From Candidatus Kaiserbacteria bacterium (GTDB lineage: Bacteria; Patescibacteriota; Minisyncoccia; Phycocordibacterales; UBA2100), in assembly GCA_016214605.1 (NCBI GenBank), contig JACROD010000014.1, positions 41,074 to 105,073 on the forward strand: 64,000 nt of DNA, given 5' to 3'. Shown here one piece after another: positions 8,641 to 52,700 of the stretch (its first letter is position 1; the number at the start of each line of letters is the position of its first letter). The translations under genes and the position numbers were made by a program. Below the pieces are notes generated by a model. That model did not search any database, was not told where the DNA came from, and saw only the letters and a program-made list of their open reading frames with translations.

Positions 8641-10860
8641 CTAGAACTGTGGAATGATTGTGTGTGATGAATCGGTATTTCCCGGAAGGGTGTTTATAGG
8701 GAATGTGGCAGTGGATGTGGCGTCTGTGGTGGAGGTACTTATAGTACCTCTGACCCAGAGTTGTACTGCATAATCCCAATAAGGAAACTGAGAATCACTG
8801 TAAGGATTTCCGGTTTGTGTATTGTGTGGGTTGTCTTTTTGTACCCAATATAAAATATCATGTACTCCTCGCGAGGGGTCGGTGTTCCAATTACCGCGCA
8901 AAACAGGCGGTAGGGAATCTTCGTCTGGATCGGGGGCCGGTGGGGTAAAACGATCACTCGGATACTTTTCGGCAGCATACACCATCACATCATGCCATGG
9001 TGGCGCTACGATGAATGCCGCTATCTTTTTTACCATAGGACTATTATCGTTGTTGCCGGCCCATGCGCCGATCGCAATAGACGGTGTGTAGCCGATGACC
9101 CAAGCGTCGCGAGAGTCGTTGGTTGTTCCCGTCTTATCGGCTACGTCCATACGATGGAAATTCAACGGACTATCAACGCCGAATTCGGGGGTGCGCGCCA
9201 CATTATCGGAAAGGACATCATTGATCTGTCGTGCGACCTGTGGATCAAGAACACGTGTCGAGTTGGCTGTGTATTTTTCGAGCACATGTCCGCGATTGTC
9301 CCGTACCTCAAGGATGCCTGTAGGTGGATTCTTCACCCCATCGTTGGCGAATACACCATATGCACTCGTCATATCAAGCAAGGTCACTTCGCCGCCGCCG
9401 AGCACCAAAGTGAGTCCGTATTGATTTGGGTCGCCAAGAGTCGTGATGCCGAGAGCTTCGGCGGTATCGATCGCGTTTTGTATCCCGACAAGATAAAGGG
9501 TTTTGATCGCGGGGATGTTTTGCGATTGGGCGAGTGCGTTACGTAGACTCATGGGCCCCTTGAAATTTCCATCGTAGTTTTGTGGCGAATAACAAGGTGG
9601 TTCACCGTTAGTCACATCTTCAACTTTACACGCGGTCGAGAATTGTGTTTGCAGGTCGAATACGACAGTGTTTGGGGTGTATCCTTTTGCGAAGGCTGCC
9701 GCGTACACAAATGGTTTAAACGATGACCCTGGTTGGCGATGGGCAACAGTAATATTTACTTGGCCGTCGATGTTGTCATTGAAGTACTCTTTGGAGCCGA
9801 CCATAGTGAGGATCTGTCCGGTCTTCGGATCGATCGCCACAAGGCCCATATTTGAGGCGTTGAAGTTGTTTTGCATGGCAGGTGCATATGATCGTATGAC
9901 CGATTCGGCCTTTTGTTGCAAATCATAATCAAGAGTGGTGATCACACGGAGTCCGTCGTTGTTTACCGCATCGACACCGTATTTTTTCTCAAGATACTCT
10001 CTCACAAAGAATACAAAATGCGGCGCTTTGATTCCGGCTTCTTTTTCACTCGTGAATTCGACCTTTTCACCTTTGGCGGCCCGGTATTCTTCTTCGGTTA
10101 TATAGCCTAAAACCTTCATTCTTTGGAGTACAAGATTTTTACGTATGTCGAGTGCGGCGCGGTTGTTGCCGTATGGTGAATAATAAGTGGGTGCCTGCGG
10201 GATCGCGGCTATATATGCTGCCTGTGCAAGATCGACATCTTTTGCGTCGAGACCGAAGAAGTATTGGGTCGCCTCCTGTACTCCATAGATTGTGCCGCCG
10301 TACGGGGATTCGTTGAGGTAGGCGCTGAGGATCTGTTCTTTTGAGTATGTGCGCGTGAGGCGTAGTGCAAGAATGATCTCTTGAAGTTTGCGAAGAATGG
10401 TTTTATTTTGGGACAAAAGGGCATTCTTGACGACCTGTTGAGTGATCGTCGAGCCGCCCTGCTCGTATGATCCACTGAACAAGTCCACCAGCATGGCGCG
10501 CGCAAACGAGAGGGGACGAAATCCGGCGTTGGTGTAAAAAGAGGAATCTTCGATCGACACAGTCGCTTTTTGAATATAAGGAGAAATATCTTCTATAGGG
10601 ACCGAGGTGCGGCGAACCGACCCGTGTACATCGTAGAGCACGATATTACCGGTACGATCGTATATTTTTGTCGATTCGGAGACCTGTCGCGCCTCGAAGT
10701 TGTCTATAGAGGGGATCGGCATGATAGCAGCCCACACAAGCATGACGCCGAAGAAAAAGAGAAATAACGCGAAACTTCCTATGATCGCGAGCTTGAGCCA
10801 CTGAAAAGCGTTATTTTGGGCCATTTTTTTAGCTGGTACAAATCGTCGTAATCTGTGCAT
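8641..10860 (-). CDS. Class A penicillin-binding protein (PBP1A family)
   Basis: Transglycosylase ED..F and GGSTITQQVVKN; transpeptidase QPGSSFKPF, SQN, KTGT. Confidence 0.95.
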   Translation of the reverse strand: MHRLRRFVPAKKMAQNNAFQWLKLAIIGSFALFLFFFGVMLVWAAIMPIPSIDNFEARQVSESTKIYDRTGNIVLYDVHGSVRRTSVPIEDISPYIQKATVSIEDSSFYTNAGFRPLSFARAMLVDLFSGSYEQGGSTITQQVVKNALLSQNKTILRKLQEIILALRLTRTYSKEQILSAYLNESPYGGTIYGVQEATQYFFGLDAKDVDLAQAAYIAAIPQAPTYYSPYGNNRAALDIRKNLVLQRMKVLGYITEEEYRAAKGEKVEFTSEKEAGIKAPHFVFFVREYLEKKYGVDAVNNDGLRVITTLDYDLQQKAESVIRSYAPAMQNNFNASNMGLVAIDPKTGQILTMVGSKEYFNDNIDGQVNITVAHRQPGSSFKPFVYAAAFAKGYTPNTVVFDLQTQFSTACKVEDVTNGEPPCYSPQNYDGNFKGPMSLRNALAQSQNIPAIKTLYLVGIQNAIDTAEALGITTLGDPNQYGLTLVLGGGEVTLLDMTSAYGVFANDGVKNPPTGILEVRDNRGHVLEKYTANSTRVLDPQVARQINDVLSDNVARTPEFGVDSPLNFHRMDVADKTGTTNDSRDAWVIGYTPSIAIGAWAGNNDNSPMVKKIAAFIVAPPWHDVMVYAAEKYPSDRFTPPAPDPDEDSLPPVLRGNWNTDPSRGVHDILYWVQKDNPHNTQTGNPYSDSQFPYWDYAVQLWVRGTISTSTTDATSTATFPINTLPGNTDSSHTIIPQF

Positions 10861-45869: not shown

Positions 45870-45941
45870 GCCCTTGTAGTTCAATGGATAGAACACCGGA
45901 CTTCTAAGCCGGCTATGGAGGTTCGATTCCTCCCGAGGGCA
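45870..45941 (+). tRNA. tRNA-Arg(UCU)
   Basis: Loop CTTCTAA, GGTTCGATTCC; A31-G39 mismatch in anticodon stem. Confidence 0.9.
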
Positions 45942-46086
45942 CTACTTCGCTCCGAAGCTTCGCAACGGAGCTTCGAAGTGCACGGCACTACAAATACCCA
46001 TATTACGTTGTTACCCTACAAGCGAAGTAGCCCTTCGTAGCTCAGTAGAGCGAAGGAGGGCATATTTGTGGCACGTACAACCGTGT

Positions 46087-46116: not shown

Positions 46117-46333
46117 ATCCAGTAGTTAGAACCTTGAAACAGAGCCAAGAAAAAGGCCGAACTACATAGGTGTAACCTATGTAGTGAATGTGCCACAGCA
46201 GAAAGCGACTCTCAAGGAGCTACGGCTCCGAGGTGCCGAATTCAGCAGAATTCGGCCAAAACATGGGTACTTTTCTGCTGTGGCAAGCCTTGGATGGTCC
46301 AAGGAACCGGCAGTACAACAAAAGGAGCTGACC

Positions 46334-46906
46334 ATGTCACAGGACATGCTCGGTGGCTCAGGTGAAGACCTCGGCCTCATTATCGACTTCACGCAGAAGT
46401 TGCGTCATGGGGGGAGTGATTTTCGCGAAGCGGCGAAAAAGTTTCTCCGCAAGACACTTGTTACTTTGACGCTCGGCGACGGGCAAACAAAGACGCAGTT
46501 GCTTGCCGCCTACAACTGGGTCAGTGATGTCGCCCGCGCGTTTGTCATGTCGGAGCAGTTCCGCATGGCCTTTGTGCGCGAAGACGCCGACCTCGAGTTC
46601 GTCGAAGGCAGTGATTTCGATCACGATCCGTCCTCGGAAGAAGTACTCACCGAGCTCAAAAGGCGCGGCCTCGAAGAGCCGACCGAGGAAGATGCTCTGC
46701 GTTACGGTGCCACTTGCCCCGAAGGCAAGGACAAGCGCGCAGTGGTCTTCTTGCACAAGGCGAATCTATGGCGTGACCCGGGCGGCCACCTGGGCGTGTT
46801 GGTCTTCGACTGGGGTGGTTCGAAGCGCTACCTGGGCTGCTACCGGTTCGACGACCCGTGGTATCGGCAGCGCTCTCGGTTCGCCGGGCGCCGTCCCCGC
46901 AAGTAG
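46334..46906 (+). CDS. DGR target protein (190 aa, C-terminal variable region, probable CLec-like fold)
   Basis: AAGGAG RBS before ATG 46334; the last ~45 codons are the VR; no signal peptide. Confidence 0.9.
   Translation: MSQDMLGGSGEDLGLIIDFTQKLRHGGSDFREAAKKFLRKTLVTLTLGDGQTKTQLLAAYNWVSDVARAFVMSEQFRMAFVREDADLEFVEGSDFDHDPSSEEVLTELKRRGLEEPTEEDALRYGATCPEGKDKRAVVFLHKANLWRDPGGHLGVLVFDWGGSKRYLGCYRFDDPWYRQRSRFAGRRPRK
46769..46902 (+). repeat. DGR variable region (VR)
   Basis: 134 bp, colinear with TR, 16 mismatches. Confidence 0.96.
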
Positions 46907-46954
46907 CGCTTGGCCCTCGCACCTGTGCACTTGCACTCGGGCTTTTGCTCTTTG

Positions 46955-46980
46955 TCCTCGCGTCAGAAATGATGCGAGGG
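46955..46980 (+). promoter_or_regulatory. Hairpin downstream of VR (DGR target-recognition hairpin and/or terminator)
   Basis: CCTCGCGTCA-GAAA-TGATGCGAGG then CTTTTGTTT. Confidence 0.65.
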
Positions 46981-47243
46981 CTTTTGTTTGGTATAGTGAG
47001 AACGGTAGTAGGCGAATCTGCCGCAGATCACGGTTTGTGGCGGCTGAATCCAGTATCCTTCAGTCCGGAGCCGCAGAGATTACGGTCGATGCGGGAGCGA
47101 CTGTCGATATTCAAAAAACGAAGATACTTGGCGTGCGATGTCAGGGCATTACGATGCCGAATACGATACAGCCCGGAGAGTATTCGATGGGTGGTGGTAT
47201 CCGAGAATATCGGATGACAGGCATGGACGCCATTGCACGCAAA

Positions 47244-47377
47244 TGGCGTGACCCGAACGGCAACCTGAACGTGTTGGTCTTCGACTGGGATGGTTCGAAG
47301 CGCAACCTGAACTACAACCGGTTCGACAACCCGTGGAATCGGCAGAACTATCGGTTCGCCGGGCGCCGTCCCCGCAA
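47244..47377 (+). repeat. DGR template region (TR)
   Basis: Nine AAC/AAT codons in the target frame; every VR difference is at a TR adenine. Confidence 0.96.
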
Positions 47378-47407
47378 CTCTCTTCATTTCCCGACATATT
47401 CTCAAAC

Positions 47408-47805
47408 TCAAGAATGTGTCGGGTTTTGTTTTGTCAGTTGCCCCTGCCAGCCTCCGAGCATTTTGCCGATTTCGTCGCATTGCAGAGAAAGCGCGGCATA
47501 TTTTTTGTTGTCGAGAGACTTGCTTTCCCAGAGGATGAGGAGCAGGAGCTTTATGGTATCGAATTTGCGTATTGCGGTGCGCAGGTACGGCAATTTCTCT
47601 TGTTTGGCCAAGAATGCGGCAGCCGAAACCATCTCCATCACTTCGACGAACAGCATATCTACTTTTGATCCGACAGTGTACTGATGCAGTTTGGGCAAGG
47701 TAGAATGATACTCATGCCACAACAAATAAGCCTGTTTGATCCGCTCCAGAAGGGGCAAGAGTCGTGCGGGGGGGGGGGTACGCCTCTAGGATTGTTTTCA
47801 CTCAT
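47408..47805 (-). CDS. avd: Avd-like four-helix-bundle accessory protein; continuous ORF only from TTG 47758, ATG 47805 is out of frame across the C11 tract
   Basis: LPKLHQYTVGSKVD, EIGKMLGGW motifs; located between TR and RT. Confidence 0.88.
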
Positions 47806-48837
47806 ACCTACGAGGATATCATCTCTGTAGAAAATCTCCTTGCCGCGTGGCAAGAGTTCGTCCGCGGCAAGCGCCAGAAGCGAGATGTGCAGGATTTCCA
47901 ACATCGCCTGATGGACAACATCCTCGCGCTCCATCGCGATTTGAAAAACAAAACGTACCGTCATGGCGCATACGAAGCCTTCAAGATCAATGACCCGAAG
48001 CCGCGCGACATACACAAGGCGACCGTGCGCGATCGGCTCCTGCACCATGCGCTCTATCGCCAGCTCTACCCCTTTTTCGACCGCACCTTTATCGCGGATT
48101 CGTATTCATGCAGAAAAGGTAAGGGGACGCACAAGGCGATGGATCGGTTTCGGTCATTTGCATACCAAGCGAGCAAGAATCATACGCGTACTGTCTGGGT
48201 GCTCAAATGCGACATCAGGAAGTTCTTCGCATCAATAGATCAAGCAATACTACTCAACATCGTCGAGAAATACATTCCCGACAAAGACATCAACTGGCTC
48301 ATCAGTGAGATCGTCGTGAGTTTCCAGACCCACACAACTATGCCTATAGGACGATCTGTGTGTATGGGGAGAAAAGGCCTGCCTGACCAGCAGGCAGGTT
48401 TGCCGCTCGGCAATCTCACCTCGCAACTGCTCGTGAACATCTATATGAACGAATTCGACCAGTTCGTGAAGCACAAGCTCAAAGTGAAACATTACGTGCG
48501 CTATGCCGATGATTTTGTGGTCCTTTCGCATGATCGCGCAGAGCTCGATCGGCTCCTTTCCAAGATCGAATCTTTTTTGCAAGATAAACTCAAATTACAA
48601 TTACATCCCGACAAGGTTTCGATCTCAACATTCGCCTCAGGAGTGGACTTCCTTGGATGGGTGCATTTTCCCGATCATCGCGTATTGCGGACGAGTACGA
48701 AACGACGGATGATGCGAGGTATTGTCGGACTGGAAAAAGATGATATGCGCGTACGGTCGTACCTCGGACTGCTTTTGCACGGAAATGCAGGAAGGCTTGC
48801 AGTATGTGTTGATTCTCTATGCACACCGCTTGCATAG
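47714..48837 (+). CDS. DGR reverse transcriptase; continuous ORF only from GTG 47764, ATG 47714 is out of frame across the G11 tract
   Basis: KPRDI, RDRLLHHA, DSYSCRKGKGTH, LKCDIRKFF, GLPLGNLTSQ, RYADD, GVDFLGW. Confidence 0.95.
47768..47778. repeat. G11 homopolymer, candidate phase-variation tract
   Basis: Longest homopolymer noticed in the window; lies within both RT and avd 5' regions. Confidence 0.85.
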
Positions 48838-49765: not shown

Positions 49766-52700
49766 ATGAATCATTTCCGTATTGTGCGCTCCGCGGGGGC
49801 TTTTGTGACTGCTATTACTTTTATCTTCGCGCCAATTTCTCCCGCCCTCGCGCTTGGTGAACTGCCGACCGATGTCACGCCACCGATTATCTCTCTGGGT
49901 ACGGTCACTTCGATCGCCACGTCGTCTGCGACTATCACCTGGACGACGAACACGAATGCGGATACGCAAGTCCATTATGGGACGACATCGAGCTACGGTT
50001 CGAGCTCGTCGCTCGATTCGACCCTCGGCCTGACGCACTCGGTGACGCTTGCAAGCCTCTTGCCCAACATGACCTATCACTATCAGATAGCATCGCGCGA
50101 CGCATCTGGAAATCTGACTACTTCTTCCGATGCGACATTCACTACGAACTCATTGCCGGTCGTGGTCATTTCCGACACCACGCCGCCGTTGGTTTCAAAT
50201 ATCGTTGCTGCGACCGTTTCCTCCGTCGCCGAATCAATCGTGTGGACGACCAACGAATTCGCCACCTCGACTATCCGTTGGAGTACTGACACAAGCTACT
50301 CTTCGACGTTTCTCGTATCCGAAACGGCAGGCCCCACTCATGCCGGTGCCTTGGTCGGACTTTCGCCTTCGACCACATACCATTACTGCATCGACGCGAC
50401 CGACCTCGCGGGCAATACCACAAGCTCGTGCGGGCATACGTTTACTACCGCCGAGGCACCTCTCATTCCCGACACGATCGCGCCGGCCATTGTGGATGTC
50501 GCTTCTATGTCGCTTGAGCCGCATACTGCTACCGTGACGTGGACGACGGATGAGCTTGCGGTCTCGACGCTCGAATATGGCACGACGATGAGTTACGGCA
50601 CTTTGGCTACGCTTTCGGCAAGCGCGCTCCTTTCGCACGCGGCCGAGCTCACCGGCCTTACAGCAAACACCACGTATCACTATTGTCTCCACGCGACGGA
50701 TCTCGCGGGGAATATCACGAATTCTTGCGGCCACTCGTTTACCACGGCCGTTGTGGAGGTGATGCTCGACACGAACCCGCCGACCGTCTCGTCAGTTACT
50801 GTCGCGCCTATCACCACGACTTCGGCAACAATAGGGTGGACGACGGACGAGATCTCGGGTGGCTATGTGGAGTACGGCACGACCATCGGCTATGGCTCGG
50901 AGACCGTATTCGATACCAACCTCGCACTTACGCATGAAGCGACTCTTGCAGGACTAACACCCGACACCATCTATCACTACCGTGTCCACTCGCGCGACGA
51001 GGCGGGCAATACCGTGATAACTCCCGATGAGACATTTACGACCCCGCAAAGCGCCTCCGTTACCGCGGGGCAGGCCGCTTCGATACCGATTATCTCGACG
51101 CCTTCCGATACGACCCCGCCTTCGATACGCGAAGTGACTACGAGCTCCATCGGTTCGACCATTACGACGATAAACTGGACGACCAACGAGCTTGCCGTCT
51201 CGACCTTTGACTATGGCACGACACAAAGCCTCGGCTCCCACGCCGAGCTGTCCGGCAGTGGCTTGCTCACGCACGATGCGACCCTCGTGGGGCTTTCTCC
51301 GAGTACGACATACTACTATTGCATCCACGCGACCGATCTTGCGGGCAACGTCGCTGATTCCTGTGGCCATTCATTTGTCACCGGCGCACCTCCGCTCGTC
51401 CCCGACACGACCGCTCCGTCGGCTACCTCCGTCGTCGTTTCGTCGATTATCGCTGACTCCGCGTCGATTCATTGGACGAGCAGCGAGACGGCGGATTCGC
51501 AAGTGCAATACGGCACGACGATCAATTATGGAATGGAGACCCCCATAGAAGCGGAATCAAATTTTTCCGGTACTGCCTCACTGGCTAACCTTGCACTCAA
51601 TACGACGTATCATTTCCGCATCCGCTCATATGATTCGTCGGGGAATGTCGGGCTTTCGAGCGATTATACATTCACGACCGCCGCATCGTCGGGTTCATCT
51701 GGCACGTCCGCAAATGCGGCCCCCATTATCTCAGGGGTTGGCGCGGGTACGATCGGGGAAACGAGCGCGACGATCAATTGGACGACCGATGTGCCAGCCG
51801 ATTCGCTGCTCGAATATGGCAATAGCGAAAACCTCGGTTCCGGTGCGTCGTCCGCCACACTGACGACTTCGCATGCCATAACGCTCACGGGACTTTCGTC
51901 CGACACCAACTATCAATTCCGCGTCATTTCAAAACCGGCCGGCGGCGCTGCATTCCAGACGACCTCGCCAATGCATGAATTCACAACGCTTGCCGTACCC
52001 ATCATCGTCGATCCGGCAGCCAATATCACGTCTGTCTTGGCTCGAGTGGTCGGAAGCGACGCATCCGTATCATTCACTACTGATGAAATGACGACGGGAC
52101 AAATCGAATACGGACTGGATACTTCGTATGGTTCTGCCGTTGCTTGGAGCGAAGGGCGGGAAGCGGGCACGCTCTCGATCCCAGGATTGCAACCGGGGAC
52201 GTACCACTTCCGCGTGAAAGCGATCGATGTGGGCGACAACATTACGTATTCGGAAGACCACACGTTCATGATTGCCGGAAGCTCTTTCGCGACTTCCACA
52301 CAAGCGCAAACTCAAACTTCAGATGGCAGTTCTTCAAGTGTTGCGGCGCCCGCCTCCGCTGTGTCAAGTGCGGCTCTGGCGGGCAATGGCGGAGGCGGCA
52401 GTTTCGCACTCGCCGTCTCGACGCCGGTACCCAACGTCGTCACGGCGGAAGGTGTCGACTCGCAGATCGTGTTCGCGTGGAGGAATCCGGAGACTTCTAA
52501 TTTTGCCGGTACGGTCGTGCTTCGCAAAGCAGGCGGCTACCCAAGCGGTCCACATGACGGGACTGTGATCTACAATGGCTCGGCACAAACATTCACTGAT
52601 ACGTCTCTTACGAACGGGACGACCTACTATTACTCCCTGTATTCATACAATTCAACGAATCAGTATTCCAATCCGATACACGTATCGACTGCGCCGAAAG

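Follow-up and report, generated by a model that had tools for sequence, protein, structure and literature searches.

Organization of the DGR and of its avd-RT junction

The window, which is the whole 64,000-nt stretch of DNA analysed here, was confirmed to carry a genuine Patescibacterial DGR. Directly upstream of the DGR target gene lies a tRNA-Arg(TCT) gene (45870-45942), the only Rfam match near the element. The target gene itself (46184..46906, plus strand) is a 240-aa open reading frame of uncertain start and without Pfam match, with the variable repeat VR (46768..46902, plus strand) at its 3' end, terminating at the stop of the gene. A terminator-like hairpin with a T-run (46954..46981, plus strand) lies 3' of the target, and the template repeat TR (47243..47377, plus strand) comes next. 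When TR and VR were aligned over 135 nt, all 16 mismatches fell at TR adenines, of which TR has 30. Beyond TR, the body of avd (47408..47767, minus strand; Pfam bAvd match of 5e-10, which sits at the curated cut-off) and the body of the RT gene (47779..48837, plus strand; Pfam RVT_1 match of 5e-26, YADD motif) are both intact. The order TR-(avd reverse)-RT is that of architecture B3 in the sections of Wu et al. (PMC5758913) covered here, and CPR DGRs, as presented in the covered parts of PMC5758913 and PMC8144416, share with this element the Target-VR arrangement, the TR, the reverse avd, the RT and adenine-specific TR/VR differences. A second terminator-like hairpin (47390..47423, plus strand), found by the same scan, lies after TR and overlaps the avd stop, so that RT would need its own promoter inside avd if the hairpin acts as a terminator; TR RNA and RT would then also be carried by distinct transcripts.

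The avd and RT bodies diverge from a run of 11 Gs (47768-47778; C11 on the avd strand) that leaves both genes out of frame as assembled. The run lies between two outer start codons, one for each gene. On the plus strand, ATG 47714 opens a 5' RT segment (47714..47767) that is in exact antisense codon register with avd, while on the minus strand ATG 47805, the antisense of an RT His codon, opens a 5' avd segment (47779..47805). Each ATG has a candidate -10 box 7 nt away from it: TAGAAT (47701..47706, plus strand), located inside avd, for RT, and an extended TGA-TATCCT (47813..47821, minus strand), located inside RT, for avd. All these elements had been listed in the original prediction, together with the spacing of the two boxes, and all were found in the sequence. 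The prediction had also proposed that a single change in tract length would open RT and avd together, and scripted versions of the locus with runs of 6 to 16 Gs agreed: both genes were open at 6, 9, 12 and 15 and both were shut at any other length. At G12, the products are an RT of 374 aa and an Avd of 132 aa, while the outer ATGs yield just 38 aa and 48 aa at G11.

Such runs are rare in this genome, since only five G/C runs of at least 10 were found in its 1.09 Mb, and three of these are in its three avd-RT loci. A Logan contig from sequencing run X1 covers 47484-47991 without a gap or a differing letter and again displays G11, an agreement that is not independent because X1 may be the source sample.

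The two candidate promoters and the leaderless starts were predicted from motifs. The prediction had described a -10 box 7 nt upstream of the ATG as a leaderless layout used by many genes; a peak of TAnnnT at 6-8 nt before ATGs does exist, but its genome-wide mode is 6 nt and not 7 (62, 29 and 29 of 533 long open reading frames at 6, 7 and 8 nt before the first ATG, compared to 4-26 at other gaps). This peak suggests that leaderless or near-leaderless genes are frequent in this genome, and we found no paper describing such a genome-wide TAnnnT layout in our literature search. These 120 matches at gaps 6-8 among the 533 open reading frames compare with 63 Shine-Dalgarno-like words. A sigma-70 two-box scan of the window recovered neither candidate promoter (four sites compared to 2.4 expected) and gave no support for a -35 box.

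Comparative evidence on the junction repeat and on the gene starts

Comparisons were made over three sets of loci. Set A was picked by RT protein similarity alone and consists of 110 loci, one of them the window locus, plus two paralogues from the window genome; once three loci without avd in the contig and seven duplicates were dropped, 102 loci were left, and the frame was scored in the 98 that have a repeat. Set B corresponds to 120 metagenome loci picked by a pattern, a G run plus a CAT...GATAT motif, so that the tract, the avd ATG and the avd -10 box are fixed by construction in this set; 102 loci were left after dropping 11 without avd and seven duplicates. Sets A and B together thus provide 200 frame-scored loci (98 and 102). 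Set C is made of 40 extra hand-picked loci, mostly with RTs of 43-55% identity, of which 39 were scored. The relatives are mostly labelled as Patescibacteria groups, and raw counts overstate independence because the loci are related.

The original prediction had proposed looking for a conserved tract in relatives, and a repeat was indeed present at the avd-RT junction of 98 of the 102 set-A loci. In 88 of them it is a G run of 6-14, and in the other ten it is a repeat of another type: GT in four loci, 4-base units in four and 7-base units in two. Repeat units of 1, 2, 4 and 7 bases were thus seen in set A, and none of 3 or 6. Since these different repeats encode unrelated residues, what is conserved is the instability and not the peptide. 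Four of the 102 junctions are without repeat, one of them being a spurious call. Among the more distant RTs of set C, no junction tract was found in 20 of 39 loci, so the tract is not needed by all such DGRs.

A few loci depart from the simple junction run. Locus L249 has a G11 run next to a C15 run at its junction. The third DGR of the window genome, on contig C18, has no junction tract; there, a G10 run (77948-77957) inside RT, in the loop before its GxPxG motif, frameshifts RT, and at the matching RT position locus L268 is also frameshifted and carries a (GA)8 repeat. As these two were the only cases among C18 and the 20 distant tract-less loci, a repeat inside RT was rejected as a general substitute for the junction tract.

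Several lines of evidence support that synonymous RT positions are constrained so as to preserve the avd ATG and its -10 box, and that the outer avd ATG is the real start. In set A, the RT His codon opposite this ATG is CAT in 81 of 82 loci, compared to 43-55% in six other conserved His columns, and GAT is used in 60 of 62 loci for the Asp codon from which the minus-strand -10 box takes its first T, compared to 36-72% in eight other columns. A TAnnnT box was found 7 nt upstream of the avd ATG in 89 of the 102 set-A loci. Moreover, when read in the RT register, the minus strand has no stop between the avd ATG and the tract in 84 of 98 set-A loci (20 and 46 in the other registers), and RT codons that would make a stop in avd are nearly absent between ATG and tract in the CAT loci of sets A and B (1 of 119 Leu codons and 0 of 120 Ser codons, compared to 19% in the RT body). 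Framing of avd by the repeat is, on this comparative basis, probably the constant core of the system across relatives.

The situation of RT is more diverse. A start of its own (ATG, GTG or TTG) was found after the tract in 111 of the 200 loci (74/98 in set A and 37/102 in set B), and the other 89 (24 in set A and 65 in set B) are frameshift-gated. In these loci without an own start, an open upstream ATG in the avd antisense register is available in 80 of 89 cases (16/24 and 64/65), compared to 5 and 8 (set A) and 1 and 14 (set B) for the other two registers, and compared to only 20 of 111 own-start loci (11/74 and 9/37). TAnnnT 6-8 nt before such an in-register ATG follows the same division, being found in 67 of the 89 loci that lack an own start (12 in set A and 55 in set B) and in two of the 111 that have one (0 and 2). 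The upstream ATG falls at different avd His codons, at about -26 to -30 and at -52 to -58 from the tract. Near the tract, avd Leu codons that would make a stop in RT amount to 4 of 195 in loci without an own start and 58 of 204 in loci with one, compared to 21-22% in the avd body.

In a FastTree RT tree of 148 rows, from which 52 were dropped for short RT coverage, own-start and overlap layouts are scattered among each other and have changed at least 19 times. Over 10 supported independent pairs, the upstream ATG followed the loss of an own start 7.4 times and opposed it 0.4 times (means; median p 0.016). The association extends to set C and its RTs of mostly 43-55% identity: an in-register ATG is present in 17 of the 18 tract loci that lack an own start; a -10 box before this ATG was found in only one of these 18 distant loci and was rejected as a general feature. 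Natural in-frame alleles with both full open reading frames also exist (L016, 375 and 135 aa; L010, 366 and 132 aa), and a locus from a genome of the window's genus, L272, has a G9 junction with ATGs that are 87 nt apart and in register. An in-register upstream ATG is missing from eight of the 24 set-A loci in which RT has no start of its own. A sub-lineage made of L050, L053, L058 and L079 is characterized by a short tract-to-RT distance, with neither an in-frame start after the tract nor an in-register upstream ATG.

Altogether, the proposed conservation of the outer ATGs was borne out, both being real starts by comparative evidence. The dual frameshift that had been predicted holds at the window locus and in 89 of 200 relatives, but in the other 111, including the paralogous DGR on contig C12, the tract frameshifts avd only. 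Likewise, the rule that a tract length of 3n means ON is valid at the window locus but only locally, because in-frame lengths fall in all three classes modulo three elsewhere (8, 5 and 4 among metagenome loci).

A third arrangement was detected among the loci with an own start. In 39 of these 111, a TAnnnT box precedes the RT start by 6-8 nt (by exactly 7 nt in 38), and in 34 of these the box begins where the tract has its last G. A hexamer starting with TTG is present 15-19 nt upstream in 20 of 33 loci of this spacer type, compared to 2 of 89 of the overlap type, and the Gln codon behind this TTG is CAA in 23 of 23 cases (44 of 77 in the body). The tract could thus tune RT transcription while framing avd in 33 relatives. 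The spacer is 17 nt in the two loci with avd in frame, and 15, 16, 18 or 19 nt in the others. Because this tie between frame and spacer modulo three results from geometry, and because most spacer loci belong to one avd subfamily, we consider the spacer wiring as a lead only. The C12 paralogue, whose RT is 77% identical to that of the window and whose avd is of a different subfamily, has a G10 run (52262-52271) that fills a candidate RT promoter spacer of 18; its avd is out of frame and its RT has an ATG of its own. Comparison of this paralogue with the window locus suggests that RT was exchanged between cassette types.

Tract register and its possible explanations

Only 40 of the 200 frame-scored loci are in frame, while 92 (+1) and 68 are out of frame in the two other registers. 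The genes are nevertheless intact in the off loci (RT body 114/118 and avd body 125/126), as they do in the on loci (31/32 and 31/33). The fraction of TR adenines changed in VR is also the same in both, 0.57 in 105 off loci and 0.56 in 27 on loci (p 0.96), VR divergence being a record of past activity only. Among pairs of loci with at least 97% identity, tract length differs in 6 of 16, although such differences among metagenome contigs could be homopolymer consensus errors and the members of a pair may come from related samples. Two on/off pairs stand out: L207 and L226, which are one G and one substitution apart over 652 nt, and L127 and L150, which are one G apart at more than 99% identity. 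The near-identical pairs mostly end short of VR. A further candidate, L116/L209, was rejected as a simple slippage pair since a 19-nt deletion separates its members. Where the tract has been eroded or deleted, the locus is mostly in frame (L029, L098, L251 and L232), with L012 as an exception.

Considering these observations, we think it likely that the tract is a heritable contingency switch, operated by DNA slippage, that controls DGR hypermutation and is off in most cells. Replication slippage would add or remove repeat units. avd would be transcribed leftward from the -10 box inside RT and translated from the ATG beyond the tract, so that the tract sets its frame. At the window locus, RT has no start after the tract and would start at the ATG inside avd; since the two frames are in exact antisense register, the one length in three that opens avd opens RT as well. 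In other lineages, the same repeat would frame avd alone, or would frame avd and space the RT promoter. Since mutagenic retrohoming needs both Avd and RT, as established for the DGR of the Bordetella phage, cells with an in-frame tract would mutagenise VR while the others would hold their current variant, and the window allele would represent the off state of an element that has been active. Both the slippage within populations and the gating of VR mutagenesis are steps that we infer. The junctions share several traits of contingency loci: the repeat unit is not a multiple of three and lies in a 5' coding region, on and off alleles occur among close relatives (with sequencing error as a possible contribution), and the rest of the gene is intact in the off alleles.

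The main rival is a throttle based on recoding, in which an off-frame tract is the normal condition and slippage during transcription or ribosomal frameshifting provides a low and constant supply of Avd and RT, whereas the DNA length drifts with little effect. That 80% of the loci are out of frame, with the in-frame class (40/200) below one third, would fit such a mechanism, and so would the predominance of +1 among the off registers (92 compared to 68); off loci that are intact and whose VRs are as diversified as those of on loci fit constant leaky expression as well as they fit switching. Programmed recoding, however, normally fixes one register and one slippery motif, whereas all three registers (40/92/68) as well as five kinds of repeat unit, among them units of 2, 4 and 7 bases, occur here, and the process would have to act on poly-C in one mRNA and on poly-G in the other. 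We therefore regard recoding as an unlikely substitute for the switch, with which it can nonetheless coexist.

A second alternative is that the genes start after the tract, at GTG 47764 for RT and TTG 47758 for avd or at other weak starts, which would turn the run into a spacer or cis-element that affects the level of expression and not the frame. Both open reading frames do exist as written, with GTG 47764 in frame with RT at G11 and the bAvd match wholly inside the TTG-started frame, and RT starts after the tract in 111 of 200 loci, with the tract as a candidate promoter spacer in 33. TTG is also enriched at the fallback Leu codon (53% and 77% of Leu, compared to 16-20% in the avd body). The share of TTA at this codon, however, is 27% in loci without RT overlap and 0% in loci with it, which indicates a constraint from the plus strand rather than a start. 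Both of these starts turned out to be poorly conserved: of 175 loci, only 92 have TTG at this Leu codon and 68 lack any ATG, GTG or TTG between tract and motif, and an NTG in the RT frame within 15 nt before the tract was found in only 13 of the 89 loci without an own start. Inner starts would also leave unaccounted for the near-invariant CAT (81/82), the fixed -10 positions and the avoidance of antisense stops on both sides, which makes this explanation improbable.

Long G runs are error-prone in sequencing, and true alleles might all be in frame if homopolymer errors had created the off states and the length variation. A Logan contig from run X2 does end inside the tract, at 47777, which is too weak to count. 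An artefact would require 160 of 200 loci to be wrong, including 8 of the 10 loci with 2-, 4- or 7-base repeats, which are out of frame too; the separately assembled X1 contig has G11 as well, and errors do not account for a repeat that is kept at the junction. We thus give this explanation very little credence. Least probable of all is a one-way inactivation, in which the need for a Pro/Gly linker preserves the run as a weak spot for mutation and off alleles belong to dead elements that are being lost: DGRs do have a patchy distribution among relatives (128 of the 301 genomes in the class), and a mutator becomes a burden after a good variant has been fixed, but off loci display no surplus of further lesions, and a constraint on the peptide would neither keep a pure homopolymer nor permit swaps to repeats encoding unrelated residues.

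Returning to the slippage switch, a broader proposal, which we favour with some reserve, is that many Patescibacterial DGRs are phase-variable mutators, with one repeat wired in at least three convergent layouts and with RT and Avd on together in a minority of cells. The repeat would frame avd only, would frame avd and RT in antisense, or would frame avd while spacing the RT promoter (17 nt when avd is in frame). The avd/RT overlap would have been acquired or given up repeatedly, with a minimum of 19 changes on the RT tree, so as to keep both genes under one stochastic switch. In the sections of Roux et al. (PMC8144416) covered here, DGR clades 2 and 3 are significantly less active than the average and clade 2 contains Patescibacteria only. 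The proposal would explain the low activity measured for clade 2.

Relation to known DGRs and contingency loci

The DGR type and the mechanism of phase variation by simple sequence repeats are both known. Avd and RT are both required in the DGR of Bordetella phage BPP-1 (PMC5758913; bioRxiv 10.1101/2023.10.23.563531, in the parts covered). That DGR (mtd-avd-TR-brt) resembles the window element in this dependence on Avd and RT, but its avd is co-oriented and located upstream of TR, and no repeat switch is described for it in those parts. A homopolymer or phase variation is not mentioned in the main text and supplement of PMC5758913 as covered here, nor is a homopolymer in the corresponding main text of PMC8144416, and the covered parts of both papers do not describe overlapping avd/RT 5' ends or a frame-setting repeat. 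The tract is likewise not described in the covered parts of PMC8867640 and of bioRxiv 10.1101/2023.10.23.563531. Within these parts and in the papers listed by our literature search, we found neither a DGR controlled by a simple sequence repeat nor a single tract that frames two antisense genes.

Contingency loci also occur in Neisseria and in the Haemophilus lic genes. Promoter-spacer phase variation is exemplified by the poly-G of Neisseria porA and the poly-C of Bordetella fim. Long repeats slip, and poly-G/C contingency loci are documented for example in Campylobacter jejuni (PMC4965091, in the part covered). With classical contingency loci, the window element shares a repeat unit that is not of three bases near a 5' coding end, lengths of 7-14 and a host without detectable MutS/MutL: MutS_I and MutL domains were not found in the window genome, which is 96.8% complete and in which 11 of 14 controls gave a match. 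It differs in that the switch of a classical locus acts on a single gene of one strand, encoding a surface protein or a methyltransferase, whereas one tract here frames two overlapping antisense genes, and in that the gated product would be a mutator of another gene, which amounts to variation of the rate of variation. A layout comparable to porA and fim is seen in 33 related loci, where a TAnnnT box located 7 nt ahead of RT's own start marks the end of the G run; unlike in porA and fim, this run also belongs to the avd frame of the opposite strand, and this spacer mode concerns relatives and the C12 paralogue and not the window element.

If true, a repeat switch would answer how cells limit DGR mutagenesis, which otherwise destroys a good variant: short bursts of search would take place in few cells and would be followed by lock-in. 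This matters for Patescibacterial lineages, which are among the richest in DGRs. The state of the switch would be readable from sequence, and VR diversity in existing metagenomes should be predictable from the tract register of the reads. Gene callers would then assign wrong starts to avd and RT in most such genomes, which would result in wrong proteins when CPR Avd or RT are expressed or when "active" DGRs are counted. A single repeat framing two antisense genes would also be an unusual genetic design.

Two further long runs were observed in the window genome. On contig C20, a G13 run (112553-112565, minus strand) lies near the 5' end of an open frame of about 1,500 codons, and a hydrophobic, signal-like segment with an ATG is found upstream of it in another frame; this arrangement resembles the off state of a classical contingency locus for a large surface protein. 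On contig C5, a G17 run (10182-10198, minus strand) is located at the extreme 3' end of an open frame of more than 850 codons, where it alters only the last residues.
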